Source: Clostridia bacterium (GTDB lineage Bacteria; Bacillota; Clostridia; UBA1212; UBA1255). From it: 64,000 bases of DNA. This document shows positions 20,222 to 34,771 of the stretch, one piece after another; positions within the stretch are counted from its first letter, which is position 1; every line of letters starts with the position of its first letter. The stretch spans positions 3,099 through 67,098 of the forward strand of contig JBKUJR010000010.1 of the NCBI GenBank assembly GCA_046952735.1. Direction: 5' to 3'. The position numbers were made by a program, and so were the translations under genes. The notes under the pieces were generated by a model that was not told the origin of the DNA, searched no databases, and was given only the letters and a program-made list of their open reading frames with translations.

Positions 20222-20954
20222 GGTATATCTGCGGGATATAAGATTTTCAAAGAAAAATCCCGGCGAAAATTATTGGTGCTGCTTACCGTTTTATCGGGAA
20301 TTAATATCAGGAAAGAAGATTTCTTTTAATACGCCCGTCACTTTTTTTATAGGAGAAAACGGTAGCGGTAAATCAACCTTGATAGAAGCTATTGCTGTTG
20401 CAATGGGATATAACGCAGAAGGGGGGTCTAAAAATTTTAATTTTAGCACGAGGAACACCACTTCAATGTTGTATGATGAACTTCAACTTAGTAAAATTGC
20501 TTACGAGAGTGATGGATTTTTTTTGAGGGCTGAGTCGTTTTATAATGTAGCGACACACATTGATGATCTTCGAATAAATATTGATAATTATGGGGGAAAA
20601 TCATTACATAATCAATCACATGGGGAGAGCTTTTTAGCATTAGTTCAAAATCGATTTCGCGGAAATGGTTTTTATATTCTTGATGAGCCGGAAGCTGCAT
20701 TATCACCCATGCGACAATTAACGTTGCTTATCGAAATAAACAATTTGGTGAAAAATAATTCTCAGTTTATAATTGCAACGCATTCTCCGATACTGCTTGC
20801 ATATCCTGGAGCGCAGATTTATAATTTGGACTCCGGAATTGAAAGGATAGATTATGCTGAAACTGAACATTATAAAATGACAAGAGATTTTCTTGATAAT
20901 CCGGATATATTTATTAAGAGATTATTTGATTCCGATCTCCCTACTGATAAATGA
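20202..20954 (+). CDS. stand-alone ABC/SMC-type AAA ATPase (AAA_15/21-like), 250 aa
   Basis: Walker A FIGENGSGKSTL, signature-like NQSHGES, Walker B ILDEPEAALSP and H-loop IATHSP. There is no transmembrane domain. Its start overlaps the ABC fragment by 20 nt. Confidence 0.65.
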   Translation: MKMTSNKVYLRDIRFSKKNPGENYWCCLPFYRELISGKKISFNTPVTFFIGENGSGKSTLIEAIAVAMGYNAEGGSKNFNFSTRNTTSMLYDELQLSKIAYESDGFFLRAESFYNVATHIDDLRINIDNYGGKSLHNQSHGESFLALVQNRFRGNGFYILDEPEAALSPMRQLTLLIEINNLVKNNSQFIIATHSPILLAYPGAQIYNLDSGIERIDYAETEHYKMTRDFLDNPDIFIKRLFDSDLPTDK

Positions 20955-21681
20955 AATGAGGTTTGCGGTTCAGCAGTTATAGTGAGTAATCATCATGATG
21001 TCATGGATTTGAGCCATGTCTGGGGAGCCAGGATTATTCATATCGGAATATGTAATATGCACCAGTAACGAAAACCTTGAAGATGAAAAGTCAGTAAGCA
21101 AAATTATCAGTTTGATTTGTTGACAGATGGGTAGCGCAAAAGCGTTACATTGAATTTTAAAAAAATTTTTTTATTTAAAATTTTTTCACACCCATTGACA
21201 AAATTCAAAAATCACCCCATATTATATATGAACCTTAAATTTATGAAGGAGAAATTCGAGATCAGTTTCAGCGAATCCGTATGGGATGCGCCCGAGCTGT
21301 CTTTGTTTCGACTTCAGGGAAAGGTTGAAATAATCGGCTTTGCGGACGCTTATCCTAACGGACAGGCGTCTTTTTTGTTCCTGCGGATCCGGCTTTTTGT
21401 CGGAGGAGTAATCGGACGACGATACGCTGTGACTGTCAGAATAATATATTTTGGAGGATTTATGGAACAATACGTAATCAATCGGATTACGTATGCTGCT
21501 TCCTATGAATTCCTCAAAAGATTTGTACGCAAAAACAAACTGAATATGAAACAGCTTGAGGATATAAGTATAGTGATGGCTGACTATCAAGTATGCGATC
21601 CTATCCTTTTGCATCATTGCGGGAACCCAGATAATCCGTATAATGGAGACAACTCCAAGATGCGAAAGGGGACAGGAAAAA

Positions 21682-22001
21682 ATGATGAGCAAAACAGTTC
21701 AGATCATCAAAGCAAACAAAGCGTCTGCCAAGGATGTATTGCGCGTTGCGGCATACTGCCTAGTACAGACTCAGAGGATCAGGTGAATTCCTTTATTGCG
21801 CAGATGCACTATTATTACAGTTTTATTCATCAAGCAGAAAACATGACGCTTGTAGATATTTATGCCGACGATAGTGTGTCTGGCAGACTAAATCCAATGA
21901 ATACTATTAGTTTAGGCTTTGGCGGTTTCCCCGCTAAAGCGTCGGTCGTGTTTCGGCGTTTTACAGTCTTGCAAGGGAATGTGTGCGGGTTCTTTGTGTA
22001 A
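21682..22001 (+). pseudogene. large serine recombinase N-terminal fragment (frameshifted)
   Basis: MMSKTVQIIKANKASAKDVLRVAAYC then, after a frame change, STDSEDQVNSF...DIYADDSVSG. This parallels the AAYCRVSTDDEDQFNSY...GIYADEGITG segment of the copy at 33975. Confidence 0.5.
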
Positions 22002-22175
22002 GCTTAGCCTGAAAACACTCCCCGGCTTGCCCCCGGATTTCTTCACCGCATATATCACATCATATCCTTGCGTTATCATAAAATATTCGTCAAGATCACC
22101 CAGTGTTTTTCAGTAATTATTCTTTGAAATCTGCGTTGTAAATAGATAGGAGCCATTTTTCTGTAAAAAACAAAA

Positions 22176-23022
22176 GAGATATGGTAATGTTAGCAATTCA
22201 AAGCCTTAGACCGGAGCCGTAGGCGGAGGGAGAAGGCTTTGAATTGCGGCGCGCTTATACCGACAGCTTTTCCCTCAGCAATTGAATCGGACTTTTTCCG
22301 CCGAGTGTACGCATGGTCTTATTATTACTCCACCGCAAATGTCCCTTGAGCTTTTCATTCAGTTCATCCACGTTTCTGAATTTCTCCCAGTCGTAGAAAT
22401 AACGCTGGTCATTCCTATGGCTGCGCTCGACCTTTCCGTTGTGCCAAGGTGTTCTCGGCGGAATCAGAATATGCGCTATACCGCATTTCTCAAGCAGCTT
22501 ATCCATCGGGCTTTTTTCTGTGTCGCTTATGAACTTGCAGGTAAACTCCGTTCCGTTATCGGTCTGTATTGTCTTGATTTTAAACGGAAATACTTTATTC
22601 TCCGGTGTATGCTCCTCAAACCCATATACAAAGCGAATCCGCGTACATTCATCTATGGCTGTCCACTGGTATAAACGCTTTCCGTCTCTGCGCAATTCTC
22701 CATGCAAACAGTCATATGGACTTCCTTTACGTCAATTTGAACCTTTTCGCCGGGAAAAAGCAGCTCCGGATAACGTTTCAGATTAGTGAGCGGCTGCTTT
22801 TTCTTTTTCGTTTCTGCTCCCAATCCGACCCTTTTGGCCGCATACACCATTCCGCTGAAACTGCGGCTATATCCGGCTTGTAAAACTTTTTCCTTTTCTT
22901 AATGAAAGTTTTTCTACCGCTTGCCGTTTCCTCGCTTCCTGTGTTATAATATTTATGGGAAGTTTCTCCTTGATATGGTTTTTGGTCTTATAATGATTCC
23001 ATTATACCATATCTTTCGAGAG
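22176..23022. mobile_element. internally deleted IS element remnant (rve/DDE transposase) with imperfect terminal inverted repeats
   Basis: A GC-rich block inserted in AT-rich DNA. Terminal repeats AAAGAGATATGGTAATG (about 22182) and the reverse-complement of CATTATACCATATCTTTC (about 23002) share the core AGATATGGTA. The body is only about 0.85 kb, so it is deleted. Confidence 0.45.
22255..22883 (-). pseudogene. DDE-type (rve integrase core) transposase, frameshifted
   Basis: QTDNGTEF...WHNGKVERSHR DDE core at 22255-22707. An upstream piece (EKVQIDVKEVH) lies in another frame at 22653-22850. Confidence 0.6.
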
Positions 23023-23093
23023 TCTTCCTCTCTTTTTGGGTCATATCATTTTAGTACATACAGTTTTTCGGCAAGTATTTTTTAACATGCATT

Positions 23094-23123
23094 GACAATT
23101 ATGGAAGATTTGTGATATCATGC
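23094..23123 (+). promoter_or_regulatory. putative promoter of the peptide-modification cluster (TTGACA, 18 nt spacer, TG-a-TATCAT extended -10)
   Basis: TTGACA at 23094 and an extended -10 TGATATCAT. A leader of about 270 nt follows. Confidence 0.4.
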
Positions 23124-23397
23124 ATTTAAGCTAAATACTAGCTTTCTGTGCTGAATTAATCGCAGGGAGAAACCTGATTATGACATACCGAACCGACAGC
23201 AAGAGTCTTGCTTATTCCTCTGGATTCATACATCGATTTGACGATGGATTACCGCCGTTATGTTTTTCTGTGTTGCAAAATATTTTTGCAAAAAGCGCAA
23301 AGCGTCCGCTAGGAGATGGCTTTGCGCTTTTGCTTTTGAACATAAGAATTTTATATATTGGTTTATACGTGCTTCGGAGTTTGTAGATACCCTGTAA

Positions 23398-24261
23398 TTG
23401 GGCGATTTCGCAGTATTAGAAATGAGGCTTAAAATGTTTTATTCATTTTATAAAAATGCCGAATATAGTATGGAAGATGATTTGCGTTATCTAAAGCTAT
23501 ATTCCGATTATGATCATGCAGAAAACGGGCAAACACAAGATGTTAATTTCACATTTGATACCAAATCGCTAGAATTGATACAAATTAGAGACACTTGGAA
23601 TATTGATGACGTTATGGGGTTAGGTACGGAGCTTCAGAGAATTGTCAAATTGAAAAAATGGGCTTTCGAGTTATTATGTTTTAGTGGGAAAAAACTTGAA
23701 AGTAGGCATTACGAAACGCTTAATTGTTTTGAAACTATTCAATCAGCAATAAGTGAAGGTTATTCATTGAATTGTAGATATATCTCCCTTATTTTTACAC
23801 AAATATTATTAGCTGCAGGATTCAAAGCGAGATGGGTATCTTGTTTGCCTATGGAGTTAAATTACTGTGAGTGTCATTGTGTTTCCGAAGTATTTATTGA
23901 GGAATATAGAAAATGGATCGTTGTAGATGTTGCATTAAATGTTTTGTATTTTGATAAGAAAGGAAGTCTTCTTAATTTATATGATATAAGGCAGCATGTA
24001 CTAAAAAATGAGCCGTTTAGAATACAATCAACAACAAAAGAACATTTTCAATATGTTTGGGAATATTGGATAAGGCATGTTTTTAGATTTAAATTCCTTT
24101 TAAATAACAAATACAATATGTTGGCATCAAGCAATAAAACATTTGTATTTTTAAACCCAAAAGGGTTTGTTGTAAACGATAAAGAAATAATTCATTCAGA
24201 GAACGACACTACGAAATTTATACATTTTTATAATGATAAATTATTTTGGAAGGGGTCTTAG
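23398..24261 (+). CDS. transglutaminase-like superfamily enzyme (papain-like Cys-His-Asp), putative peptidase
   Basis: NCRYISLIFTQILLAAGFKARWVS matches the Transglut_core Cys motif (G.C..FA..F..L.R..GIPAR.V). CHCVSEVFIEEYRKWIVVDVA supplies the His and Asp. The true start is probably the ATG at 23422 or 23434; the track starts at a TTG at 23398. Confidence 0.7.
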   Translation: MGDFAVLEMRLKMFYSFYKNAEYSMEDDLRYLKLYSDYDHAENGQTQDVNFTFDTKSLELIQIRDTWNIDDVMGLGTELQRIVKLKKWAFELLCFSGKKLESRHYETLNCFETIQSAISEGYSLNCRYISLIFTQILLAAGFKARWVSCLPMELNYCECHCVSEVFIEEYRKWIVVDVALNVLYFDKKGSLLNLYDIRQHVLKNEPFRIQSTTKEHFQYVWEYWIRHVFRFKFLLNNKYNMLASSNKTFVFLNPKGFVVNDKEIIHSENDTTKFIHFYNDKLFWKGS

Positions 24262-24265
24262 TTAT

Positions 24266-25573
24266 ATGTTTAAACAATCTAAATTTAATTACACTTGTAA
24301 AAATGATGATGGCGAATTGCTTATATATAATACATATATTGGTGCCAAAAGCATGTGTAAAATCAGAGATTTATTATTACAAGATACGTTCTTAAATAAC
24401 ATTTCAATTGAAAATGAATCAGTTCTTTCAAGCTTGTTATCAAGAGGTGTTTTGGTAAATGACGATTTAGACGAGAATTTGAAGCTAAAAAATCTTATTC
24501 ACAAAATACTATCTCCTTCTGATTTAAAACTTGTTATTAGTCTTACTGAGCAATGTAATTTTTTATGTAAGTATTGTTATGAATCGCATAACAAAATAAA
24601 GCTCACTTCAGATGTAAAATACAATATAGTGAATTATATAAGGCATAACATACACAAATTTACAGATTTAAATATAACTTGGTTCGGCGGCGAGCCACTA
24701 CTTGCACTTGATGATATAATAGAAATGTCGCAAGAATTTATAAAAATATGTACTTTTAACAGAAGAAAATATACAGCTTCAATGACTACTAATGGCTATT
24801 TATTGGATGTAGAAATATTTAAAGAACTCTTGCGTAACAGAGTCTGGGCATATCAGATAACCCTTGACGGCACAAAAGAGCTTCATGACAAGCAACGTCC
24901 AACTGTAGGAGGCAAACCTACATTTGATACTATTGTAAAAAATCTTGAAGAAATTAAAAAGTTGAAAAATCGAGATTTTCACATTGTTATCCGTTCAAAT
25001 CTTACGAGCGATATATTTAATCATTTAGACGAATATATGGAATTTATCTCTTATCTTTGCGGCGATGATAACCGTTTCTCTTTATCAGTTTGTTATGCCA
25101 GCGAGTGGTCTGATAATATCGATAAAGATTTCAAGGATACGTTTATTAATAACCGTAACAACATTTTTCCATTATATGAAAAATTTCTAAAATGCAAAAG
25201 TCAAATTAATTTTGCTTTTTTATTAAATCCTGAAGATGGAGCATGTGAACTGGGACGTGATAATAGGTTTTTTGTTCGTCCCAACGGAGAATTACATAAG
25301 TGTTCTGTGGGATTTGAGAATAAAAAAAATATCATTGGCGTATTTTCCGGCAATCAAATTACGCTTAGTGATAACTATTATGAAAAAATAATAGATCCAA
25401 GTATGTGCAGCAATTTTGAAAGTTGTTTCTTTGCTCCTATATGCAAAGGCGAAGTCTGCCCTGCGGTGCGAAGTGAAAAAAATACTAGTTGCCCCGACTC
25501 GAAAAATCACCTAAGTTACATACTTCGTTTATTAGACAAATCGAATCAGATTGTCCGTATTGATGAAAAATAA
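24266..25573 (+). CDS. radical SAM/SPASM-domain peptide maturase
   Basis: CNFLCKYC is the CxxxCxxC radical SAM cluster motif. A C-terminal SPASM-like Cys cluster follows (CELGRD...HKCSVGF...MCSNFESCFFAPICKGEVC). RBS GGAAGGGG precedes the ATG at 24266. Confidence 0.85.
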   Translation: MFKQSKFNYTCKNDDGELLIYNTYIGAKSMCKIRDLLLQDTFLNNISIENESVLSSLLSRGVLVNDDLDENLKLKNLIHKILSPSDLKLVISLTEQCNFLCKYCYESHNKIKLTSDVKYNIVNYIRHNIHKFTDLNITWFGGEPLLALDDIIEMSQEFIKICTFNRRKYTASMTTNGYLLDVEIFKELLRNRVWAYQITLDGTKELHDKQRPTVGGKPTFDTIVKNLEEIKKLKNRDFHIVIRSNLTSDIFNHLDEYMEFISYLCGDDNRFSLSVCYASEWSDNIDKDFKDTFINNRNNIFPLYEKFLKCKSQINFAFLLNPEDGACELGRDNRFFVRPNGELHKCSVGFENKKNIIGVFSGNQITLSDNYYEKIIDPSMCSNFESCFFAPICKGEVCPAVRSEKNTSCPDSKNHLSYILRLLDKSNQIVRIDEK

Positions 25574-25586
25574 GGAGTTAAAAATT

Positions 25587-25841
25587 ATGGATAAATCATT
25601 GATAAGAAATAATATTATTCAAGCCTTAGCAAAAGTTTTTATCTTTGTTGACAGCGCCGAAAATGAAGATGTTGATTTGGAAACATATATTGATGATTCT
25701 ATACAATTTATGTCTTTCATAGTTGAATTAGAGCAAATTTTCAATATCGAGTTTCCACCTGAATTGTTATTGTTTGATAATTTCAAGACCATCAATAACA
25801 TATCCTTAATTATAGAGGAGATGTCAGCATTAGATGCCTAG
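25587..25841 (+). CDS. acyl/peptidyl carrier protein-like (PP-binding) small protein
   Basis: An 84-aa protein with an ACP helix-2 signature around a Ser (YIDDSIQFMSFIVELEQIFNIEF). Strong RBS AAGGAG 9 nt before the ATG at 25587. Confidence 0.6.
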   Translation: MDKSLIRNNIIQALAKVFIFVDSAENEDVDLETYIDDSIQFMSFIVELEQIFNIEFPPELLLFDNFKTINNISLIIEEMSALDA

Positions 25842-25903
25842 TAATATTAGCCACAGGGCACTTTGTGTTAATATGATTATTCTCGAGAAAGGAGGATGCT
25901 GTT

Positions 25904-26035
25904 ATGACAAAAAAAGTCAAACTAAAAAAGCCGCAAGTCAAGAAAGACGATAAAATCTTGACTCTGTATAGCACGGAAACGAATGGCGTTGATTCATGCT
26001 GCCCAAGCGGTCAGAGTGGAAACTGCACCTGCTGA
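25904..26035 (+). CDS. candidate RiPP precursor peptide, 43 aa, Cys-rich C-terminus (not in the ORF track)
   Basis: RBS GGAGGA sits 7 nt before the ATG. Translation: MTKKVKLKKPQVKKDDKILTLYSTETNGVDSCCPSGQSGNCTC. It has a Lys-rich leader-like N-terminus and four Cys in the last 12 residues. It lies directly downstream of the rSAM/SPASM and carrier genes and is followed by a terminator. Confidence 0.55.
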   Translation: MTKKVKLKKPQVKKDDKILTLYSTETNGVDSCCPSGQSGNCTC

Positions 26036-26062
26036 ATTACTTAAATAAGTAAAATCCAAAAC

Positions 26063-26100
26063 CGCCTATATAGTAAAGTGCCTTACTATATAGGGCTTTT
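26063..26100 (+). terminator. intrinsic terminator/attenuator after the precursor peptide
   Basis: A roughly 15-bp stem GCCTATATAGTAAAG/CTTACTATATAGGGC followed by TTTT. Placement after the peptide is typical for high peptide-to-enzyme expression ratios. Confidence 0.5.
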
Positions 26101-26119
26101 GGTAGAAAGTAAGAAAGAA

Positions 26120-27901
26120 ATGAAAAAGTTAACCATATTTTCCGAATTACTACGATATGCATGGAAAAATCACAAATCACTTGTATTTGTGATTGTGTTT
26201 GAAAATATATTCTCCGCTACGCTTCCTCTAATAAACGTAGTTGGTATCGGCGTTATTATAGACGCTTTAACAAATGGACTCAGTAATAAAGCAGTGATGA
26301 ATATAATTTTAATGTTTACTGCATTGAATTTAGGCGTTTCATTGATAAAATATGTTTTAACATATTTGCATAATATAGCGGCACGAAAAGCGTCGGATAA
26401 AATTCAATATGATTATATGCGAGATGGGATTATCGTAAATTATCACTGGGCGCAGGACGGTTCTGTTCTTGATATGAAAAAGAAGTCAATGGGAGCTAAT
26501 CCCGTATTCGTATTTTCGCATATTGGAAACTTTATTGATTATATAGTAAAATTTGCCGGTATCCTATTTATTTTTTCAATGCTCAGTCCGCTGTTTATAA
26601 TTATGATTTCTGCTACATCGGCAATTTCAATCGTAATAACATTTAAAATACGGAAACTTGATTTTGAATTTGAAAATGAACGCACAGAAGATTCTCGCAA
26701 ACTCGATTATCTCTATAATCTTATGACACGGTATGAATACGCAAAAGAGGTCAGAATAAATAATTTAAAGCCTCTGATTATACACAAAAATGCTGGTATT
26801 ATCGCTACTCAATTAGTGAAACTTAAAAAATTTATGCGGTTAAAACTGCGTTTTGATAGTCTATCCGCTGTTGTTGCGGTAGTACAATCAGTTATTATGT
26901 ATTCGTATTTTTCTTATCGTGTTTATATCGGCAGCCTGACTATAGCTGATTACTCTGTTCTGCTGGGAGCTGTGGCGTTATTGACGTCTATTTTGATTGG
27001 TTTTTTTGATAATATTGCCGTTATAGACAGAATGACGGCTCGTATGGATATATTCCTTAAGTATAAAAAATGGGTACGTGAGAACAGCGATATTTTCGCT
27101 ACAAATGAAATACCTCAAAGCGTAATTGATGAAAAGCATAATCAAATAAATTTTGAAAATGTAAGCTTTATTTATCCAAATACCGATATTTCAATACTTC
27201 GTAATTTGAACTTTGTTTTGAAAGATGGGCAGAAAGTCGGAATTGTCGGATTGAACGGTTCCGGCAAGACAACGCTTGTTAAACTTCTTCTTCGCCTTTA
27301 TACGCCAACACAAGGGAAAATACTTCTTAACGGTATTGATATTAACACAATTCCCCTTGAACAATATTTAAAGCGGATTGGCGTGGTTTTGCAGGATTTC
27401 AACATTTTCGCATATTCAATTAAAGAAAATGTCGTTTTCGATAACAATGTTAGCGAAGATGTACTCAACAACGCTATTGAAAAAAGCGGCTTTGCGGGGA
27501 AAGTGGCAAGTTTAAAGGACGGCGTTGATACAATTCTATATAAAGAGCTTGATGAAAACGGGATAGAACTTTCCGGAGGTGAAGGGCAAAAATTAGCGCT
27601 CGCACGCGCACTCTGTAAAGATACCGGAATTTTAATCCTTGACGAACCGACTTCCACTCTTGATCCTATTGCCGAATACGAAATGTTTTCAAGTTTACAT
27701 GACATTTCAGAGGGAAAGACTACAATATTCATTTCCCATAGGCTTTCATCGACTAAATTCTGTGACCGTATTTTTGTGATTCAAGACGGAGTTATTGCTG
27801 AAGATGGTTCTCATAGCGAGTTGATGGCACAAGGCGGGTTATACGCCGATATGTTTGAATCTCAGGCAAAATTTTATAGAGAAAATGGTGTGCTATTATG
27901 A
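26120..27901 (+). CDS. ABC exporter, fused permease-ATPase (no C39 peptidase domain)
   Basis: An N-terminal six-TM domain followed by a nucleotide-binding domain with Walker A GLNGSGKTTL, signature LSGGEGQKLALARAL and Walker B ILILDEPTS. Confidence 0.85.
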   Translation: MKKLTIFSELLRYAWKNHKSLVFVIVFENIFSATLPLINVVGIGVIIDALTNGLSNKAVMNIILMFTALNLGVSLIKYVLTYLHNIAARKASDKIQYDYMRDGIIVNYHWAQDGSVLDMKKKSMGANPVFVFSHIGNFIDYIVKFAGILFIFSMLSPLFIIMISATSAISIVITFKIRKLDFEFENERTEDSRKLDYLYNLMTRYEYAKEVRINNLKPLIIHKNAGIIATQLVKLKKFMRLKLRFDSLSAVVAVVQSVIMYSYFSYRVYIGSLTIADYSVLLGAVALLTSILIGFFDNIAVIDRMTARMDIFLKYKKWVRENSDIFATNEIPQSVIDEKHNQINFENVSFIYPNTDISILRNLNFVLKDGQKVGIVGLNGSGKTTLVKLLLRLYTPTQGKILLNGIDINTIPLEQYLKRIGVVLQDFNIFAYSIKENVVFDNNVSEDVLNNAIEKSGFAGKVASLKDGVDTILYKELDENGIELSGGEGQKLALARALCKDTGILILDEPTSTLDPIAEYEMFSSLHDISEGKTTIFISHRLSSTKFCDRIFVIQDGVIAEDGSHSELMAQGGLYADMFESQAKFYRENGVLL

Positions 27902-29679
27902 AATTTATAAAGAACAAAATAATCGCTCCATTCGAGATCATCTCACTTATTTTCAAACATTCTCCCAGATATTTTGTGTTTTTCGTACCGCAAGTGATTT
28001 GCTCTTCTCTTTTGCCTTTGTTATATGTTTATGCGCCAAAATTAATTATTGAGGCCTTAACCGAAGGCAAGGATTATGATGGTATATTTAAAATCATAAT
28101 TCTTTTCTGCGGAACGGCGTTAATTTTAAATCTTATTATAGGTTATTTGAATAAGAAAATCAGTTACTGCGTGGAAAATTTCAGCAGAAAACTGTCCTCT
28201 GAAATAGGTCGAATCGTTATGAATCTCAGCCTTTCAGAAATTGAAAACACAACAGAGCGCGACAATATTCGCCTTGCGGGCAATGCTGCGGGAACAATAG
28301 AATTGTGTGAAGTCATTAGAAAATTAATACAAAATATTATAACGCTCATCGGATTCGTTGGGATTGTTTCTGAACTGGATATTAAATTTTTTGTAGTAGT
28401 TGCTATTTTGTTGATAGTGAAAATTATATTCACTTATATTAATTATAGAGCAAATCTCAAACTTCGTATACTGACTGCGCAAAACGACAGAACAGGCAAT
28501 TATCTTACCAATCTTTGTTATTTCAATCAAGGTGCTGCTAAGGAGATACGGGTAAACAGCATTCAATTATGGTTTCTTCAAAAAGTAAAAAAATTCAGAC
28601 AGAGGATGGTAAGATTACAGTATAAAGAGTTCCGCCGAAACTTATTTTTTGATAGTATTAACGCCATTTTGTTTGCGGCTTCTTCATTTTACATTCTTTG
28701 GAGTTTATCAACATATTACCTTGACAACGCTATTTCAATCGCTGATTTTACCCTTTATTTCACAACCATCACAGCATTGAGCGCTGCATTGGGAACAATT
28801 ACAGACCTTATAGCGCAATACAATAAACAGCTTAAAAATGCAGCTGATTTTGGGAAACTTAAAACATTATCAGAACAAAACGAAAAACATCCGTCATCAG
28901 ATATTGCACCTTTTGAAGAGTCGTCAAATATAGAAATTTGTTTTTCTGATGTATGGTTTGCTTATCCGGGCAGTAAAGATTTTGTACTTAGGGGAATTGA
29001 TATAAAAATTACTAACCGCGAAAAGCTGGTTATTGTCGGATATAACGGTGCGGGGAAAAGTACGTTTATAAAACTTCTCTGCAAATTTTATCGCCCTACA
29101 AGGGGAGCAATAACCTTAAATGGTATAGATATTTGGGAGATACCAAACGAACAATATAACAGAATAATTGGCGCGGTTTTTCAAGATTTTGTTACGTTCG
29201 CATTTACAATATCCGAAAATATATCAATGAGCGAAAATAATGACGATTTGTCCGGAGTTTTATTAAAAGCAGGACTTTTAGATTTTGTAATCAATTTGCC
29301 TGACGGCGAACAAACATACATTTCAAAAAAGTTTTCATCTGAGGGCATAGAGCTTTCAGGTGGACAAGGGCAAAAAATAGCTCTTGCCCGCGCGATGTAC
29401 AAAAATGCTCCTGTATTAATTCTCGACGAACCGACAGCAAGTCTTGATTTAAAGGCTGAGAGTGAATTGTATGAAAATTTCATGAAAACTGCTTTTGATA
29501 AAACCGCATTATTTATCTCTCACCGTTTGGCGGCTTCCCAGATAGCAGATTGTATCGCGGTTTTATCGGATGGGAAAATAGCTGAATGCGGAACACATAA
29601 AGAGCTTATAGAAAAAAACGGATTGTATGCCGAAATGTTTGAAAAACAGAGTAAACCATATATCCAAGATAAAGTATAA
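27898..29679 (+). CDS. ABC exporter, fused permease-ATPase (second half of a probable heterodimer)
   Basis: ATGA start/stop overlap with the upstream ABC gene. Walker A GYNGAGKSTF, signature LSGGQGQKIALARAM, Walker B LILDEPTASLD. Confidence 0.85.
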   Translation: MKFIKNKIIAPFEIISLIFKHSPRYFVFFVPQVICSSLLPLLYVYAPKLIIEALTEGKDYDGIFKIIILFCGTALILNLIIGYLNKKISYCVENFSRKLSSEIGRIVMNLSLSEIENTTERDNIRLAGNAAGTIELCEVIRKLIQNIITLIGFVGIVSELDIKFFVVVAILLIVKIIFTYINYRANLKLRILTAQNDRTGNYLTNLCYFNQGAAKEIRVNSIQLWFLQKVKKFRQRMVRLQYKEFRRNLFFDSINAILFAASSFYILWSLSTYYLDNAISIADFTLYFTTITALSAALGTITDLIAQYNKQLKNAADFGKLKTLSEQNEKHPSSDIAPFEESSNIEICFSDVWFAYPGSKDFVLRGIDIKITNREKLVIVGYNGAGKSTFIKLLCKFYRPTRGAITLNGIDIWEIPNEQYNRIIGAVFQDFVTFAFTISENISMSENNDDLSGVLLKAGLLDFVINLPDGEQTYISKKFSSEGIELSGGQGQKIALARAMYKNAPVLILDEPTASLDLKAESELYENFMKTAFDKTALFISHRLAASQIADCIAVLSDGKIAECGTHKELIEKNGLYAEMFEKQSKPYIQDKV

Positions 29680-29711
29680 TATATTTTTAATTGAAAACGA
29701 GGGGTTGGATT

Positions 29712-31490
29712 ATGAAGAAAATAAAAATAGCGATACTTGACAGCGGAGTAAGGAAAGATCACCCTGCTTTTTCAACTAAAACGATAAACGGTTTTTCTCT
29801 TCGTTTAATAGATGAATCTGTAGAACAATATGCAGAATTTATTGATAACGTAGGACACGGAACGGCAATCTTTTACCTTATAGATAAATTTATTGATAAT
29901 GTAGAAATCACAAATATAAAGATATATGATACTAATTCTGAATTAACACAATATAATTTTGAAATGCTGTTAGATTTTATTTGTAAAAATTATGATTTCG
30001 ATATAATCAACATAAGTATGGGATTTTTAAGCTGCGGCAGTGTCGCTAACTTACAAAAAATATGCGATGATTTTTACGCAAGAAGAACATTAATTATATC
30101 CGCTTTTGATAACAACGGCGCAGTTTCTTTTCCTGCCGCACTAAATAATGTAATAGGAGTTGACGGACAAGAAAATATTGATTCGTTAAATGGTTATATA
30201 CATGTGGAAAACAGTATTGTAAATATAATCGGAAAGCTCAAAAACATGAGAGTAGCCTGGTTGGCGCCTGATTATATAATTGTAAAAGGCAACAGTTTTC
30301 TTTGTGCAAATATTACTGCCAATGTGGCAAAATGTTTACAAGAGCAAGGGGTTGTGGATTGGCAAAAAATATGCACTGACAAATATTTGTTTCCAAAAAC
30401 TTTAGACAATCATATTCCGTTTAATATACGCAAAGCAGCGGTATTCCCTTTTAATAAAGAATTACATGCGATTGCGAGATTTGAGGAATTATTGAATTTT
30501 GATATAATAGATTATTATTCAATAAGAATAACGGGATACATTGGTAAAAAAATATCTGATGTTTTACCTGATTGCAGCAACGATAAGGTTATTAAGAATA
30601 TTGATGATATTGAATGGAATGAGTTTGATACTTTGATACTGGGTCATACCGGTGAATTATCGAGGTTAACTAAAAGTGATTATAGAACCACTCTTTTAAA
30701 TAATGCCATTGAAAAGGGTAAAAACATATATTGCTTTGATAATCCTATGCCAATTATAAACAATCCCAAATATACGGATGTATATTTTCCTAAAATTGAT
30801 AGTACAAACATTAAAAAAAGATTTGGCAAATTATATAAAACAGATAAACCGATTATAGCTGTAATTGGAACTAATTCTCGTCAAGGTAAATTTTCGCTTC
30901 AGTTGTGTCTTAGAAAAAAATTAATAGAGTTCGGATATAGTGTAGGACAAATAGGAACTGAACCTTCTGCACTGTTATTCGGATTTGATGAAATATTTCA
31001 TTGCGGATATAACGGACAAGTTGATTTGGATATCTCTCAAACATATATAGCTGTTAATGATATGATTTGGAATATAACTCAAAAAGATGTTGACCTGATA
31101 ATTGCCGGAACTCAGAGTGGATTTCTTCCCTATAATGATTACAACGCCATGATGTTTCCGACATATCATCAAATATTCTTTTCTGCTTTACAGACTGATG
31201 CAATTATTGTATGCATAAATCCATTTGACGATATACAGTTTGTGAACAGAACTATAAAAGCGGCAGAAGGTCTTTCGGGCGGAAAGGTGATTGGAATCGT
31301 ATGCTTTCCTATTGATGTTTGTGACAGTTGGCAAGGTAACTTTGGAATGAAAGCTCGCATAAGCGAAGAAAGAGAAAATGAAATCAAGCATAAATATTGT
31401 TCGCATGAAGATATAAAAGTATATATGCTTGATAAATCTGACGAACTTGATGAATTATTATCCAAATGTATTGAATATTTCCAGCAATGA
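29712..31490 (+). CDS. subtilisin-like (S8) serine protease domain fused to a roughly 370-aa C-terminal P-loop-like domain of unknown function
   Basis: N-terminal Asp (IAILDSGV), His (DNVGHGTAI) and Ser (GNSFLCANITANVA, compare GTSMAAPHVAG) in subtilase order. The C-terminal region contains PIIAVIGTNSRQGKFSLQLCL. RBS GAGGGG precedes the ATG at 29712. Confidence 0.6.
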   Translation: MKKIKIAILDSGVRKDHPAFSTKTINGFSLRLIDESVEQYAEFIDNVGHGTAIFYLIDKFIDNVEITNIKIYDTNSELTQYNFEMLLDFICKNYDFDIINISMGFLSCGSVANLQKICDDFYARRTLIISAFDNNGAVSFPAALNNVIGVDGQENIDSLNGYIHVENSIVNIIGKLKNMRVAWLAPDYIIVKGNSFLCANITANVAKCLQEQGVVDWQKICTDKYLFPKTLDNHIPFNIRKAAVFPFNKELHAIARFEELLNFDIIDYYSIRITGYIGKKISDVLPDCSNDKVIKNIDDIEWNEFDTLILGHTGELSRLTKSDYRTTLLNNAIEKGKNIYCFDNPMPIINNPKYTDVYFPKIDSTNIKKRFGKLYKTDKPIIAVIGTNSRQGKFSLQLCLRKKLIEFGYSVGQIGTEPSALLFGFDEIFHCGYNGQVDLDISQTYIAVNDMIWNITQKDVDLIIAGTQSGFLPYNDYNAMMFPTYHQIFFSALQTDAIIVCINPFDDIQFVNRTIKAAEGLSGGKVIGIVCFPIDVCDSWQGNFGMKARISEERENEIKHKYCSHEDIKVYMLDKSDELDELLSKCIEYFQQ

Positions 31491-32428
31491 TGGAGAGATT
31501 TATGTATATAGATATTGCGTCAACAAAATATGATACATACGATTGTTACCAGAACAATATAATTGCTATTTTAGGTAATTATTTTAAAATTGATTATCGA
31601 CCGTTTTTTTGGAGCGGTTTTGATTTTCGTTTTTCAATTGATCAAAAGAAAAATTATATAAATATAACAGGATATAATGCATACCAAGAACAGATACTTT
31701 TAGAGCAATGCGGAGTGAAAATTAATTGTATAAACAAGACTTGTATTCAAAGATTCAAACAAATCATCTTAAAAGAGTTAAACGATTCTAGACCTATTGG
31801 ATTACGCCTAAACGGTTCTGATTTGTCATGGAATAATGATAATAAAAATATAGATTATCATTACTTGCTTATTATTGGTATTGATGTTTCTGCTTCTCTC
31901 ATATACTGTTGTGATAGTTTTCTTTCCGATAAAATTCAAACAATTGATATTTCTTATTTATATGAAAAAGTAGAATATATATTGATTTACTCTATATCAG
32001 AGAAAGGTCAAATATCATTTAATATGTCGAGAGCTAATTTTTTAAGATGCTTGGATTATAACAGTAAAAATAAGAATTCTGATTTGTATCATTTTATAAA
32101 TAATACTTCAATATTATTTGAGAATCTTAAAGGTACTAATCCAAATAATAATTCGGTAATATTTCAATTATCCCGTGTTTGTTGGAGCAGATATAATTTC
32201 ATGAAATCATTGGAATATTTTCACGATATATACGGCAACGAAATACTCGATAATATAAAAAAGTGTTTTAATGTTATAATCGACACATGGACAAAATTGA
32301 AAAATATATTTATAAGGGCTACTCTTATTAATAATGCGCAGCAACTTAATAAATATAGTGAATATTTTATTAAGCTAATAATTGAAACTGAATCTGTGAT
32401 ACAAAATTATTTAGAAGCGCAAAACTAA
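31487..32428 (+). CDS. hypothetical protein, possibly BtrH_N/peptidase-C39-like (Cys...His) transferase or peptidase
   Basis: A 313-aa protein with an N-terminal Cys (DTYDCYQNN) and a downstream His in a beta-strand context (DYHYLLIIGIDVS), as in the papain-like BtrH/C39 fold. Its start overlaps the upstream stop. This is a family assignment from memory only. Confidence 0.35.
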   Translation: MMERFMYIDIASTKYDTYDCYQNNIIAILGNYFKIDYRPFFWSGFDFRFSIDQKKNYINITGYNAYQEQILLEQCGVKINCINKTCIQRFKQIILKELNDSRPIGLRLNGSDLSWNNDNKNIDYHYLLIIGIDVSASLIYCCDSFLSDKIQTIDISYLYEKVEYILIYSISEKGQISFNMSRANFLRCLDYNSKNKNSDLYHFINNTSILFENLKGTNPNNNSVIFQLSRVCWSRYNFMKSLEYFHDIYGNEILDNIKKCFNVIIDTWTKLKNIFIRATLINNAQQLNKYSEYFIKLIIETESVIQNYLEAQN

Positions 32429-32443
32429 AATAGGAGGATTCAA

Positions 32444-32689
32444 ATGGAGGAAAAAGTAATAAATATAATATGTCAAGCAATAACACTGGAAAGTGATATT
32501 TTGATTACAGTTGACACACTACTTTCTGACTTGCCGTTTGATTCTATAAAATTTATTAAAATGGTGGTAGCTTTAGAAAGTGAATTTGATTTTGAATTTG
32601 AGGATGAAAAATTGCTCTTTACACAATTTCAAACGGTGAAGTCGTTAATTGAATATGTTGATTTGAAAGTTAATTCACTGAATAAATAA
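32444..32689 (+). CDS. second acyl/peptidyl carrier protein-like small protein
   Basis: An 81-aa protein with LSDLPFDSIKFIKMVVALESEFDFEF, an ACP-like Ser motif. RBS AGGAGG. Confidence 0.55.
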   Translation: MEEKVINIICQAITLESDILITVDTLLSDLPFDSIKFIKMVVALESEFDFEFEDEKLLFTQFQTVKSLIEYVDLKVNSLNK

Positions 32690-32904
32690 AATGTGTAAAT
32701 GATCAAGCTAAGATTCTGATAAGAGAGTAACCCGTGAAATTACTTTATTTCTGGGCATCGCTAAACTGTGAAAGCATTCCATTTCGGTGTTTTGCTATAA
32801 CTGTACCATTACTGATTTTATTTCTCTACAACAAATAAGACCAATTTTAAGTTTTTGATGGCGTGGCTGCAAAAAAGTTACATAAAAACCTGATTTATTT
32901 TTAG

Positions 32905-33980
32905 ATTTGTCTTGACACGGGGAGACGAGGGTATTACGGGAACATGTCTTGCCAAGCGTGATGAGTTTAACCGTATGATACGTGACAGCAAGGAAGGGAA
33001 GATTGACCGTATCTATGTAAAAAGCGTTTCCCGTTTTGCAAGAAATGCTTTAGATTGCCTTGATAGTATCTGTATTCTGAAAGAGTACGGCGTGTCGGTG
33101 TTCTTTGAAAATGACGCTATTGATACGCAGACACTCAATTCCGAACTTGTGCTGTATATTAAAAGTGCATTTGCCCAGGCTGAATCAATGACAGGTCCAA
33201 AAGGGTGAAGACGAGCAACAGGATGCGTGCGGAAAGCGGTCACTATACCTTTACAGCACCGCCATTCGGTTACAGAATGGAAAACAACACGCTGATTCCC
33301 GTGCAGGAAGAGGCGGAGATTGTTATTCGTATCTATAAGGAATACCTTTGCGGTATGGGCGTGAGCAAGATTGTATCGGGATTGAACTCTGATCCGGATG
33401 TTCCGGGCAAGCCGTGGAGGAAAGAGGGCGTTCGGTATATCCTTGCTAATGAGAAGTACATCGGAGACAGTCTCTTTCAAAAAAGCTTCACGCCAAATGA
33501 ACTGCCTTTCAGAAATCGTGTAAATCGTGGTGAGGTGGAAAAGTACGATATCTCGGGTACCCATGAGGTAATTATGGATAGGAAACTTCATTCTGCCGTA
33601 CAGGAGATGCTGCGTCGTAATGTCGAAAAGCAGGCGAAAAAAGCAAGACCTCGTAAATTTAACTTCAGCAACAAAATATTCTGCGCATCCTGTGGATGGA
33701 CATATAAGCAATGAACGGGATTTTGTCGCAGGAAGCGCTGAATTTCCAGCCCGCAAAAAAAGCACTCTTTGATCTCCTGAATGCGCAGTTTGACTGCTGT
33801 GAGCCGGATCGCTCCGGCGTAGTAGAGTATATAAATGACTGTAAATCAATCGACGCAGTCGATGTGTCGCTTTTCAAGGTAATTCTTTCGGAAATTCAAA
33901 TCGATGCAAACGGAACGGTCGCTCTGCGCTTTGCAAATAACGCCGTCATTTCGTTGGAAGGGAGCGAGGAGCATGAATAA
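32905..33980 (+). pseudogene. large serine recombinase, N-terminally truncated and frameshifted (three frames)
   Basis: DEGITGTCLAKRDEFNRMIRD...VKSVSRFARN is the resolvase domain, lacking the catalytic-Ser N-terminus. The recombinase domain at 33205-33714 ends in a CxxC zinc-ribbon start (CASCGWTYKQ). A C-terminal tail lies in a third frame at 33711-33980. Confidence 0.6.
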
Positions 33981-34771
33981 CAGCAATCAGACAACGCAAA
34001 AGATCGTGACGAAAATCGCCGCCAATCCTGCACTGTCCAAAAAGTTCGATCCGAACCGTCCCTCAAAATAGCGGCATACTGCCGTGTATCCACTGATGAT
34101 GAGGATCAGTTTAACAGCTACAGAACGCAGAAAGCATACTACACCGATTACATCAAAAAGAACCCCAAATGGCGTTTCACCGGAATTTATGCTGACGAGG
34201 GTATTACAGGAACTTTGGTAAAAAAACGCGACGATTTTCTTCGCATGATAGCGGATTGCGAAAAAGGAAAGATCGACCTTATTCTGATTAAATCGGTTTC
34301 CCGATACGCAAGAAACATCGTGGATTGCATTTCGTATATACGCAAGCTCAAGGCACTGGGGATCGGAATCTACTTCGAGGAGCAGAATATCAGCTTACTG
34401 AGGACAGCGAGGTATATATCGGTATCTACGGCGTTATGGCACAGTCGGAAAGTGAGAATATTAGTGCTAATGTTAAGTGGGGAATCAATAAGCGGATGCA
34501 GAACGGTACATATGCCTGCCGCTTTAATTTGCTTGGATACCGCAGAGATAAGGAAACTAAGGAAATTAGGATTATACCCGAGGAAGCAGAGATTGTAAAA
34601 AAGATATTCCGTATGTATCTGCAGGGTTCGAGTTTGGATCAAATCAAGGCGTATTTGGAAGAGAACGGCGTTAGGACAGTGAGGGGAAATCTAAAATGGG
34701 ATAAGCACGGCATCCGATCTATGCTGACAAATGAGAAGTATGCGGGGGATATATATCCACTTTTTTTATAA
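33975..34771 (+). pseudogene. second large serine recombinase, frameshifted and 3'-truncated
   Basis: ATG at 33975 with an RBS. A 1-nt frameshift precedes KIAAYCRVSTDDEDQ (catalytic Ser motif). GIYADEGITGTLVKKRDDFLRMIAD and the recombinase domain follow with another frameshift near 34380. About 70% nucleotide identity to the upstream copy. Confidence 0.6.

Follow-up and report, generated by a model that had tools for sequence, protein, structure and literature searches.

What might a compact operon of a Clostridia bacterium make if it places two acyl-carrier-like proteins beside a radical SAM (rSAM) peptide maturase? We addressed this question in a window of 64,000 nucleotides (contig JBKUJR010000010.1), the whole stretch of DNA analyzed, in which nine co-directional, closely spaced ORFs (g1 to g9) occupy the + strand at 23434-32689, with intergenic distances of -4 to 84 nt. 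Gene starts were refined using ribosome-binding sites and the lengths of homologues, and the refined starts agree in full with those of the PGAP entries in the public record (proteins MFR1517950-57). All nine tightly packed genes of the original prediction were recovered and its domain guesses for each were verified, the SPASM Cys residues by alignment. The AT-richness that it had judged by eye (about 30% G+C) was also borne out, as G+C is 32.3% at 23094-32689 compared with 46.9% in the remaining window. A truncated rve-family transposase/integrase fragment lies on the - strand on one side (22255-22707; Pfam rve and rve_3), and fragments of a frameshifted serine recombinase lie on the + strand on the other (32912-34771; Pfam Resolvase and Recombinase on three ORF pieces), followed by a tRNA-Lys identified by ARAGORN (34930-35005). 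Remnants of mobile elements thus lie on both sides of the cluster, which had been proposed to sit within a decayed mobile island, and the operon is horizontally acquired.

The maturase, g2 (24266-25573, 435 aa), is a radical SAM/SPASM protein with a Pfam Radical_SAM match. Its top NCBIfam models are all maturases of Cys-rich peptides, each scoring far under its cut-off: TIGR04463 (173 bits), Clo7bot (160), CefB (153), geopeptide (141), PapB (118) and CcpM (94). The PapB family among these is experimentally characterized. An alignment of 55 g2 homologues shows no change in the CxxxCxxC motif or in six of the seven SPASM-type Cys at the C terminus; the remaining one is kept in 51 of 55 and is offset by three residues in the g2 of the window. 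The putative substrate is g4 (25904-26035, 43 aa; MTKKVKLKKPQVKKDDKILTLYSTE-TNGVDSCCPSGQSGNCTC), which combines a Lys-rich leader containing an LY..E motif with a core of four Cys and has an AGGAGG ribosome-binding site 7 nt upstream. This gene is unannotated in the public record, and the protein collection has no entry identical to the peptide. Orthologues were found in loci L081-L084, L001 and L003, sharing the core NG(V/I)D.CC..GQ..NC.C, and the leader architecture, in which LY..E ends the leader, recurs in around 55 of 87 loci. The precursor is conserved beside rSAM and carrier genes across Firmicutes and Treponema, and relatives often carry several tandem copies. Directly 3' of g4 is a 12-bp stem-loop with a U-run (26065-26101, + strand), the top terminator-like match in the region (folding energy -22.6 kcal/mol, z = -4.6). 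Three relatives (L081, L084 and L001) have a hairpin of diverged sequence at the equivalent position, making it a candidate attenuator or partial terminator.

The leader peptidase is presumably the N-terminal domain (29712-30368) of g7 (29712-31490, 592 aa), a subtilisin-like S8 protease (Peptidase_S8 match) in which D17, H56, S202 and N141 are invariant. Against the QhpE model it scores 84 bits (cut-off 165), and all 20 relatives tested match the same model. In the PDB it matches intracellular serine proteases best, and neither a signal peptide nor a propeptide was seen on inspection of g7; the enzyme is classed as cytoplasmic and QhpE-like. Export would fall to g5 (26120-27901, 593 aa; ABC_tran) and g6 (27898-29679, 593 aa; ABC_membrane and ABC_tran), two fused permease/ATPase half-transporters whose genes overlap by 4 nt. 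Domain calls agree with the earlier claim that the exporters lack a C39 peptidase domain, and alignments of g5 to NHLP/bacteriocin exporter NCBIfam models begin past that domain, at profile position 134 or later.

This core is not peculiar to the window. The family of S8-DUF1611 fusions to which g7 belongs comprises >665 protein clusters, with relatives in 221 species genomes, and 80 loci that we fetched contained the fusion in all cases, ABC exporter genes in 72 (mostly paired), rSAM genes in 64 and carrier genes in 64. Relatives with 75% identity in the S8-fusion protein keep the nine genes in the same order; this conservation, together with core synteny in most of the 80 loci, indicates that the arrangement did not arise by chance. 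The core set thus comprises rSAM, a carrier with an invariant Ser, precursor, S8-DUF1611 fusion and ABC exporter(s). It is the sister of the CLI_3235/CcpM 'peptide maturation system' (TIGR04065-69), which consists of an rSAM enzyme, an ACP-related protein, a TIGR04066-type protein, an S8 protease, an ABC exporter and a Cys-rich peptide, although no curated cut-off was reached in searches with the rSAM, TIGR04066, TIGR04069 or QhpE models. Passages in two papers already note such a system in Roseburia intestinalis and Paenibacillus polymyxa (PMC4573289, PMC10731318), and our literature searches returned no demonstrated chemistry for any family member or TIGR04065-69 sister. The original prediction that this combination is undescribed was thus only partly right: the core has a database-defined sister, and the unusual part is an add-on module formed by the Cys-His-Asp enzyme g8 with its own second carrier, g9, plus the transglutaminase-like g1. 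[quoted passage not shown]

The first carrier, g3 (25587-25841, 84 aa), is an ACP/PCP-like core component (Pfam PP-binding, 28.3 bits) with a weak match to TIGR04069 (17 bits, cut-off 70); homologues occur in 64 of the 80 loci, mostly immediately 3' of the rSAM gene. In an alignment of g3, 64 locus homologues, g9 and Escherichia coli AcpP, the attachment Ser was invariant (67/67) and the preceding Asp was present in 62 of 67, so that a family only 25-60% identical retains its Ser completely within a DS(I/L) motif. A conserved Ser is not in itself proof of phosphopantetheinylation. The second carrier, g9 (32444-32689, 81 aa), is a more classical ACP (PP-binding, 40 bits; other ACP models at down to 7e-10) and also has the DS motif. 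Domain searches of the cluster for a carrier-loading enzyme retrieved neither an adenylation domain nor an ATP-grasp protein, and no acyl-CoA ligase, PPTase or acyltransferase either, in line with what had been reported from the sequence.

An S8 fusion had been predicted for g7, and its protease half held up; the second half (30432-31490) had gone unidentified. It is a P-loop domain of TIGR04066-like/DUF1611 fold, scoring 97 bits against TIGR04066 (cut-off 200; matched by 20 of 20 relatives) and 26 bits against Pfam DUF1611 (cut-off 25), and its P-loop, G-T-x-S-x-Q-G-K, is invariant. A PDB profile search matched 2g0t, and an AF2 model of the domain (pLDDT 85) retrieved 2g0t and 2obn (TM around 0.7) as well as 7xrj, 'N-acetyltransferase DgcN' (E = 5e-9), in Foldseek. 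Only 7xrj among the matched solved DUF1611-fold structures has a functional name, and as modelled the S8-fused domain shares the fold of this N-acetyltransferase, which makes it our top candidate for the 'missing' carrier-related enzyme. Four loci (L007, L009, L018 and L050) have precursor, ABC and S8-DUF1611 genes without rSAM and carrier genes, so the domain may not strictly need a carrier unless one is supplied in trans; at least two of the MAGs behind these loci have a second locus with such genes.

The add-on enzyme g8 (31487 or 31502 to 32428, 313 or 308 aa), labelled 'hypothetical protein' by PGAP, is a BtrH/CtaG-like papain-fold protein with a Cys20-His125-Asp143 triad. The earlier BtrH assignment is supported transitively, through remote homologues: g8 itself scores a sub-threshold 15.9 bits against BtrH_N and its structure model failed (pLDDT 43), but a profile search extended its six clusters of close homologues to 297, remote members of which match BtrH_N (some above cut-off) and Peptidase_C39_2 and include fusions to NRPS A-T or C-A-T modules. 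C20, H125 and D143 are kept in 101, 99 and 100 of 104 aligned sequences, respectively. A g8-type gene has an adjoining or fused ACP in five independent contexts; the pair recurs in L081-L083, L085 and L086 and forms a single ORF in L003, and we take g9 to be the dedicated partner of g8. Cys-less BtrH-like paralogues (family f5) are the commoner form (42 of 80 loci) and generally lack a dedicated ACP; the sole apparent case (L072) is an over-long ORF call. The first gene, g1 (23434-24261, 275 aa), encodes a papain-fold enzyme that PGAP labels 'transglutaminase-like domain-containing protein' (Pfam Transglut_core, 29.5 bits, cut-off 23). Homologues occur in 12 of the 80 loci. The Cys-His-Asp triad of g1 is intact: C126, H160 and D177, numbered from a TTG ORF start, are shared by all 15 of the 15 homologues associated with such clusters. 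The literature documents BtrH/C39-like CtaG and transglutaminase homologues as carrier-dependent transacylases (PMC7183216).

Given the genes and domains observed, the conserved catalytic residues, the synteny and the precursor family, we consider it reasonably probable that the operon directs the synthesis and secretion of a thioether-cross-linked, Cys-rich RiPP along the following route. The g4 precursor would be produced in excess, with the hairpin attenuating read-through to the downstream genes. The maturase g2 would bind the Lys-rich LY..E leader and form cross-links between acceptor carbons and the four Cys of the core, and the S8 domain would then remove the leader; both the thioether chemistry and the cleavage site we infer. 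The DgcN-fold domain and phosphopantetheinylated g3 may next perform a carrier- or CoA-dependent acyl transfer, most likely to the newly exposed amino terminus, and in this sub-lineage the putative transacylase g8 with g9 could add or move a further unit, g1 either joining this module or serving as an auxiliary protease, before export by a g5/g6 heterodimer. The two carriers beside enzymes of carrier-dependent type suggest that the peptide receives an additional group. Carrier-dependent acylation is plausible, although every such step is inferred, down to what the acyl group is and where it comes from; in its favour are the documented transacylases of CtaG and transglutaminase type, the ACP Ser (67/67), the DgcN fold, the g8 triad (at least 95% of 104), the NRPS-fused g8 relatives and the contrast between g8, paired with an ACP in five contexts, and f5, which generally has none.

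A simpler account, in which the peptide is a plain thioether bacteriocin or signalling peptide receiving only rSAM cross-links, S8 leader removal and ABC export, is possible, if clearly the weaker bet. The carriers, DUF1611-like domain, g8 and g1 would then act as immunity factors, as additional proteases, or as chaperones or adaptors that bind non-covalently. Lasso-peptide B proteins are transglutaminase-like RiPP leader peptidases. More broadly, papain-fold C39 and transglutaminase-like proteins serve as leader peptidases in RiPP pathways (PMC7183216), but two further proteases would be superfluous beside an invariant S8 domain. The commoner f5 paralogue, being Cys-less, cannot act as a Cys transacylase; g8, however, has its triad, is paired and in L003 fused with a classical ACP, and has relatives adjoining NRPS T domains. 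The absence of a loading enzyme and the four loci without rSAM or ACP fit the simpler account, as does the reported activity of heterologously expressed SacP23 peptide (PMC10731318), whereas complete conservation of the DS(I/L) Ser in so divergent a family does not. The missing loading enzyme, the sub-threshold BtrH_N score and the rSAM/ACP-less loci are also among the points that speak against the proposed route, together with the curated cut-offs that were not reached and the lack of demonstrated chemistry in the papers searched.

That two pathways merely adjoin, an rSAM RiPP and a separate NRPS-independent thiotemplated small-molecule route of closthioamide or butirosin type built from the ACPs and the BtrH-like and transglutaminase-like enzymes, seems very improbable. 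Closthioamide synthesis does draw on the same kinds of enzyme, namely CtaG (BtrH/C39-like), CtaJ (a transglutaminase) and PCPs (PMC7183216), but domain searches found neither ATP-grasp nor adenylation proteins, nor any other enzyme that forms amides or loads carriers, g3 is a syntenic RiPP core member in 64 of 80 loci, the g8-g9 pair recurs specifically beside S8-DUF1611 genes (L085, L003), and the genes share one operon, overlapping or lying within 15 nt of a neighbour. The trio of rSAM enzyme, S8 protease and ABC exporter also mirrors QhpD/E/F. QhpD is the rSAM counterpart in that trio (PMC10114670), and QhpE is the best named match of the S8 domain; maturation of a quinohemoprotein amine dehydrogenase, or a sulfatase maturase system, would involve no secreted peptide. 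Both are effectively refuted: scores fall far under cut-offs (QhpE 84/165, QhpD 70/453, anSME 68/349 bits), no dehydrogenase subunit or sulfatase gene was found in or near the cluster, and the substrate is a stand-alone 43-aa peptide, often in tandem copies in relatives. The RiPP-type system originally predicted was upheld on the three points at which it had been said to be vulnerable: g2 resembles Cys-rich-peptide maturases (173 bits) rather than anaerobic sulfatase maturases (68 bits), homologous rSAM genes are accompanied by the conserved small peptide, and the carriers are full-length genes that stand alone and share an invariant phosphopantetheine-attachment Ser, not NRPS/PKS fragments.

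Upstream of g1, the leader of around 310 nt showed no conservation in relatives and no match to an Rfam family. Also upstream of the operon is a candidate sigma-70-like promoter (23092-23121, + strand; TTGACA and, after 18 nt, TATCAT preceded by TG; 11 of 12 positions), a consensus match that ranks top among promoter-like matches within 22700-33100. It coincides with position 23094, at which the cluster had originally been taken to begin.

The nine genes of the cluster (g1-g9) all lie on the plus strand and are spaced by -4 to 84 nt, with start codons that we set from homologue lengths and ribosome-binding sites. They encode, in order, a transglutaminase-like protein (g1, 23434-24261, 275 aa), a radical SAM (rSAM)/SPASM enzyme (g2, 24266-25573, 435 aa), a carrier protein (ACP; g3, 25587-25841, 84 aa), a precursor peptide (g4, 25904-26035, 43 aa), two ABC exporters of 593 aa each (g5, 26120-27901; g6, 27898-29679), an S8 protease fused to a second domain (g7, 29712-31490, 592 aa), a BtrH/CtaG-like protein (g8, starting at 31487 or 31502 and ending at 32428, 313 or 308 aa) and a second ACP (g9, 32444-32689, 81 aa). 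With these starts, the proteins agree exactly with the PGAP entries MFR1517950-57 deposited for the 68,961-bp MAG contig. The G+C content of 23094-32689 was 32.3% compared with 46.9% in the rest of the window which, together with the open reading frames and the PGAP identity, bears out the AT-rich nine-gene cluster of the original prediction. The best sigma-70-like match in the region (TTGACA, 18 nt, TG-TATCAT; 23092-23121) falls at the same place as the start coordinate proposed there. An Rfam search of 22700-33100 returned no credible match, and conservation of the ~310-nt leader 5' of g1 was looked for in relatives and not found.

The maturase candidate g2 matched the Pfam Radical_SAM family with 65 bits. 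In an alignment with its homologues, the CxxxCxxC motif (C97, C101 and C104) and six SPASM-type cysteines (C327, C346, C387, C393, C398 and C409) were invariant in 55 out of 55 sequences; a seventh SPASM cysteine, at column 384, was found in 51 of the 55 and is moved by three residues in g2, to C381. All of the top NCBIfam matches of g2 were maturases of Cys-rich peptides (TIGR04463, Clo7bot, CefB, geopeptide, FlmE/OhkG, PapB and CcpM). The best of these, TIGR04463, scored 173 bits where 525 are required, and the scores for named families were likewise below their cut-offs (PapB, 118 vs 340 bits; SCIFF maturase, 69 vs 425 bits), so that g2 reached the curated cut-off of no NCBIfam maturase family.

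The candidate precursor gene g4 is preceded by an AGGAGG ribosome-binding site and followed by a 12-bp hairpin with a U-run (26065-26101; -22.6 kcal/mol, z = -4.6), an order that is the classic layout for making a RiPP precursor in excess of its enzymes. A hairpin of diverged sequence occupies the equivalent position in three related loci (L081, L084 and L001). An alternative GTG start for the exporter gene g5, at 26078, was rejected as it lies inside the hairpin, and ATG 26120 is backed by homologues and by PGAP. The public annotation does not include g4: its accessions pass directly from MFR1517952 (ACP) to MFR1517953 (ABC). The gene was recovered here by our analysis; the exact peptide was not found in a collection of 15 billion proteins. 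Orthologues are nevertheless present in the loci L001, L003 and L081-L084, with the core NG(V/I)D.CC..GQ..NC.C kept. More broadly, most of the 80 loci fetched around homologues of g7 carry a candidate precursor, an open reading frame of 25-70 aa that adjoins the ACP gene, often in several tandem copies; its sequence conforms to MKK.L.KP..K....V.LY..E, after which comes a core rich in Cys, Gly, Asn, Ser and Thr. The leader motif with a Cys-rich core was detected in ~55 of 87 loci, and the motif MKK.L.KP...LY..E can be used for genome mining. No relevant match, including to the CLI_3235-family peptide, was obtained when eight family precursors were compared with NCBIfam at E values up to 10. With the motif cysteines conserved, the best matches of g2 among maturases of Cys-rich peptides and a precursor kept beside the maturase, the proposed reading as an rSAM/SPASM RiPP system holds, as does the conservation of the 43-aa peptide together with the rSAM gene. 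In loci from Treponema MAGs (L038, L039 and L052) and in L034, L048 and L051, precursor genes with an LY..E or VY..E leader form diversified tandem arrays of 3-7. Some of the cores in these arrays are very short, for example ...LYKEKGVHCC, which occurs three times in L048.

The N-terminal domain of g7 is an S8 protease with QhpE as its best named match and intracellular serine proteases as the nearest solved structures; the residues D17, H56, N141 and S202 were invariant. Its C-terminal domain matched TIGR04066 ('peptide maturation system protein') with 97.1 bits against a cut-off of 200, a match that was recovered in 20 of 20 g7 relatives tested, and Pfam DUF1611 with 26.0 bits, above the cut-off of 25. 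An AlphaFold2 model of this domain (pLDDT 85) was similar in Foldseek searches to the DUF1611 structures 2g0t and 2obn (TM 0.68-0.73) and to 7xrj, 'N-acetyltransferase DgcN' (E = 5e-9), with more remote matches to P-loop proteins of the BioD, MinD and SRP types. In sequence searches of the PDB, the profile of the C-terminal domain weakly matched 2g0t, and searches with g1, with the g8 profile and with the single C-terminal sequence gave nothing useful. The C-terminal domain of g7 shares the two-domain DUF1611 fold and BioD-like P-loop with DgcN, a likeness at the level of the fold at ~11-15% identity. DgcN, which reportedly uses acetyl-CoA, is a stand-alone enzyme of primary metabolism (D-glutamate N-acetyltransferase), whereas the domain in g7 is fused to a protease and is encoded beside a carrier protein gene. 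The exporters g5 and g6 are fused permease/ATPase proteins whose alignments to NHLP/bacteriocin exporters start past the peptidase domain, which indicates that they lack a C39 domain. The transglutaminase-like protein g1 scored 29.5 bits for Pfam Transglut_core, above the cut-off of 23, and its C126, H160 and D177 were invariant in 15 out of 15 cluster-associated homologues. Overall, every domain assignment made from the sequence was upheld by Pfam/NCBIfam, that of g8 only through its remote homologues, and the DUF1611-like half of g7 had been missed.

Both carrier proteins exceeded the Pfam PP-binding cut-off of 20.8 (g3, 28.3 bits; g9, 40.1 bits). The attachment serine (Ser38 in the 84-aa g3), in the context (D)S(L/I), was invariant in all 67 aligned sequences and the preceding Asp was present in 62 of them, in a g3-type ACP family whose members are merely 25-60% identical. 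Only 8 of 33 family ACPs matched TIGR04069 at all, and the window scored 16.6-17.5 bits for this model against a cut-off of 70. We looked for a carrier-loading enzyme or a PPTase in the cluster and found none.

At normal thresholds neither Pfam nor NCBIfam recognised g8, which scored 15.9 bits for Pfam BtrH_N against a gathering score of 29.7. A word-indexed search retrieved six close homologue clusters only; a profile search of 1.84 billion representatives retrieved 297 clusters. The remote homologues among these match BtrH_N, some of them above its gathering score (P0129, 32.9 bits; P0225, 34.9 bits; P0170, 31.9 bits), as well as Peptidase_C39_2, and several are domains of NRPS proteins that immediately follow (C-A-T-X) or precede (X-A-T) a thiolation module. 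The residues C20, H125 and D143 were invariant in 7 close homologues and conserved in 101, 99 and 100, respectively, of 104 diverse family members. An AlphaFold2 model built from a 7-sequence alignment was unusable (pLDDT 43).

A single-sequence phmmer search found g8 in none of the 80 loci, suggesting that it was unique, a view overturned by profile and HHalign comparisons with a protein at the same position elsewhere. Clustering of the neighbourhood reading frames revealed this protein, here termed f5, of ~340 aa, in 42 of the 80 loci and often directly 3' of the gene for the S8-DUF1611 fusion. Examples are L005, L006, L020-L022 (6752-7792 in L021), L027 and L035. It has a weak BtrH_N match and, over the C-terminal two-thirds, an HHalign probability of 98% for its alignment to the g8-family profile. 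As f5 is related to g8 but lacks the catalytic N-terminal Cys, g8 is the catalytically intact version of a common cluster protein. Conserved residues of f5 are W41, Y106, H129, H260 and R267; it may be a pseudo-enzyme or serve in peptide binding or immunity. The Cys-containing g8-type protein was accompanied by its own ACP in every case seen (the window, L081-L083, L085, L086 and L003). In L081-L083, the S8-fusion protein is 75% identical and the nine-gene order is the same; L085 has the order S8-DUF1611, 203-aa protein, BtrH-like protein, ACP and then ABC; and in L003 the BtrH-like protein and ACP form one open reading frame. A carrier-protein partner for g8 is suggested by this genomic association. 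The relative L084, at 66% identity, possesses g1-g7 but not g8 and g9, which argues that the pair is an accessory module. In L081, positions 1-3390 upstream of the orthologous cluster hold another ABC-ABC pair and, behind it, a truncated S8 fragment of 161 aa, apparently left over from a tandem duplication of the exporter and protease genes.

The S8-DUF1611 fusion is widespread, with >665 homologue clusters; a scan of species genomes found relatives in 221 of them, from taxa including Clostridia, Lachnospiraceae, Oscillospiraceae, Paenibacillus, Tumebacillus, Sutcliffiella and Treponema. Among the 80 loci, ABC exporters were encoded in 72, an rSAM enzyme in 64 and a g3-type ACP also in 64, in most of them directly after the rSAM gene; the transglutaminase-like gene was present in 12. 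Four loci (L007, L009, L018 and L050) encode a precursor, an ABC pair and S8-DUF1611, some of them f5 as well, and no rSAM or ACP gene lies within 10 kb. At least two of these MAGs contain a second, complete locus (L050 and L022 come from the same MAG, as do L009 and L051), so the absent genes may be supplied in trans; otherwise, the peptides may mature without cross-linking. Two loci from Paenibacillus and relatives that we inspected in full (L043 and L054) have the order S8-DUF1611, ACP, precursor, a PqqD-like protein of ~100 aa, rSAM (~340-350 aa) and ABC, in which the rSAM enzyme is shorter and different in type and the ACP still adjoins S8-DUF1611. S8-DUF1611, ACP and ABC occur in the same order in L067 and L068, from the same group.

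The closest known relative of this system is the 'peptide maturation system' of NCBIfam/TIGRFAM, which comprises TIGR04068 (the CcpM rSAM enzyme), TIGR04066, TIGR04069 (ACP-related) and the CLI_3235-family peptides. It has been described in silico in a five-gene cluster of Roseburia intestinalis L1-82 (PMC4573289) and in the SacP23 cluster of Paenibacillus polymyxa #23 (PMC10731318), in both of which an ABC exporter is present and the S8 protease is a protein of its own, and the roles of the ACP-related and TIGR04066 proteins were merely guessed in both studies. All six functions of the CLI_3235/CcpM system (TIGR04065-TIGR04069), namely rSAM, ACP-related, TIGR04066-type, S8, ABC and Cys-rich peptide, are also present in the window, and the original prediction of an undescribed combination was therefore overstated as far as the core parts list is concerned. 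However, the window misses the cut-offs of that system (TIGR04068, 93.9 vs 500 bits; TIGR04066, 97.1 vs 200 bits; TIGR04069, 16.6-17.5 vs 70 bits), has the S8 and TIGR04066-like parts fused in one protein rather than as separate genes and adds the transglutaminase-like enzyme, the BtrH-like enzyme and a second ACP. We conclude that the window system is a sister lineage of the CLI_3235/CcpM system, marked by the S8-TIGR04066-like fusion. A literature search found no solved chemistry for either. The pairing of an rSAM/SPASM enzyme with a precursor of leader and Cys-rich core also recalls the ranthipeptides and sactipeptides (PapB/freyrasin, CteB/thermocellin, SCIFF and QhpD), and the PapB, SCIFF-maturase and QhpD-family models gave significant partial matches to g2, with membership by score in none. 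We know of no ranthipeptide or sactipeptide pathway that employs a carrier protein, a DUF1611-like domain or a BtrH-like enzyme, and the literature search found none, nor any paper tying any one of these to rSAM RiPP chemistry.

Other identities for the system were weighed against this assignment. Maturation of quinohemoprotein amine dehydrogenase (QHNDH) follows a logic like that of the window, with thioether formation by the rSAM enzyme QhpD, then leader removal by the cytoplasmic, prodomain-less S8 protease QhpE and then ABC export, involving QhpF; its substrate is an enzyme subunit, whereas that of the window would be a free 43-aa peptide. We rejected the QHNDH system, as the QhpE and QhpD scores (84 vs 165 and 70 vs 453 bits, respectively) fall below the cut-offs and the neighbourhood in the window has no dehydrogenase genes. 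The anaerobic sulfatase maturase model also matched g2, at only 68 bits, a score too low for this identity. That g3 and g9 are fragments of an NRPS or PKS was rejected, as both are complete stand-alone genes with the invariant attachment serine. The cluster would work along the lines of QhpD/QhpE/QhpF and of the ranthipeptide pathways: g2 would recognise the leader and cross-link the Cys-rich core of g4, the S8 domain of g7 would cut off the leader in the cytoplasm, with a predicted cleavage site just behind the LY..E motif, and g5 and g6 would export the product. These putative steps are well supported by homology and architecture, and we consider it very probable that the product is an rSAM-cross-linked, S8-processed, ABC-exported RiPP.

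Carrier proteins typify the assembly of non-ribosomal peptides and polyketides, and few ribosomal-peptide pathways use them. Among the latter, goadvionins and lipolanthines have a carrier-built acyl group moved onto the N-terminus of a ribosomal peptide, using a GNAT acyltransferase and a full PKS/FAS, whereas the window is without such machinery. BtrH and CtaG are carrier-dependent, amide-forming transacylases with a Cys-His-Asp triad, and the transglutaminase homologues AdmF (andrimid) and CtaJ (closthioamide) likewise transfer acyl groups from carrier to amine (PMC7183216). The protein g8, whose own BtrH_N score lies below the threshold, is remotely similar to BtrH (butirosin) and CtaG and has a Cys-His-Asp triad, its own ACP and NRPS-fused relatives, and g1 shares the transglutaminase fold and Cys-His-Asp residues of AdmF and CtaJ. 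The butirosin, closthioamide and andrimid pathways are non-ribosomal, with ATP-grasp or adenylation loaders, whereas the window is ribosomal and has no visible loader.

From these sequence data we infer that g3 and g9 are real carriers, which would take part in a thiotemplated transfer. This is suggested by the invariance of the attachment serine, by the fact that the sole functionally named DUF1611-fold structure matched is an N-acetyltransferase, by the fusion of this fold to an enzyme that creates a new N-terminus, by the wiring of g8 relatives to NRPS T domains and, by analogy, by the carrier-dependent transacylation of BtrH/CtaG and AdmF/CtaJ. Weak points counted against the mechanism are that the cluster has no loader or PPTase, that curated cut-offs are missed and that four loci are without rSAM and ACP. 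We thus propose a carrier-dependent covalent decoration of the peptide only tentatively and would lean somewhat against it when taken alone; the full statement, a RiPP core with carrier-dependent tailoring, seems to us rather probable on balance. A more far-reaching scheme appears rather unlikely: the trio of rSAM enzyme, holo-carrier and leader protease-DgcN-fold protein would couple leader removal to thiotemplated acylation of the new N-terminus or of a side chain, on a thioether-cross-linked core, and the second ACP, BtrH/CtaG-like transacylase and transglutaminase-like enzyme of the window would add a further unit.

If true, this would represent a new biosynthetic logic and a hybrid thiotemplated/ribosomal class of natural products without a characterised member, with many bearers among gut Clostridia, Lachnospiraceae, Paenibacillus and Treponema. 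Many members of the family come from gut and rumen anaerobes, and the family pairs a carrier of invariant serine with an rSAM enzyme and a protease-acetyltransferase-fold fusion. The window, as a compact nine-gene version with a single 43-aa precursor and a second ACP/transacylase pair, should be expressible and offers an experimentally tractable representative of a large family that is defined by its carrier protein.

The left neighbour of the cluster (13001-23093) is likewise low in G+C (39%). It includes a gene for a 539-aa protein with sigma-70 region 4 (13553-15172, minus strand), a tRNA-Ala (16672-16747, minus strand), a phage-integrase fragment (17228-17947, minus strand) and, on the left flank of the cluster, an rve fragment (22255-22707, minus strand). 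Also encoded in this stretch are a DUF1653 protein and an ATPase of AAA/ABC-like type (20202-20954). The right flank (32912-34771) holds frameshifted serine-recombinase pieces, which look like pseudogenes, and is followed by a tRNA-Lys (34930-35005). These pieces carry Resolvase and Recombinase domains, lie in different frames and derive from at least two serine-recombinase genes. The rve, phage-integrase and broken recombinase pieces agree with the decayed mobile island envisaged in the original prediction, and an acquired island may extend over ~13-35 kb and end at the tRNA-Lys. Further away, a 1103-aa open reading frame (59016-62327, minus strand) has as its only Pfam match an 80-residue DNA-binding domain of the 6-O-methylguanine DNA methyltransferase type, close to the N-terminus. 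At 6530-12805, in host backbone of ~50% G+C, genes for a GH2-like protein, a protein with an F5/8 type C domain and a GH127 beta-L-arabinofuranosidase-like protein occur in succession, a glycoside-hydrolase-type trio that would fit a Clostridia host living in the gut or degrading plant polysaccharides.
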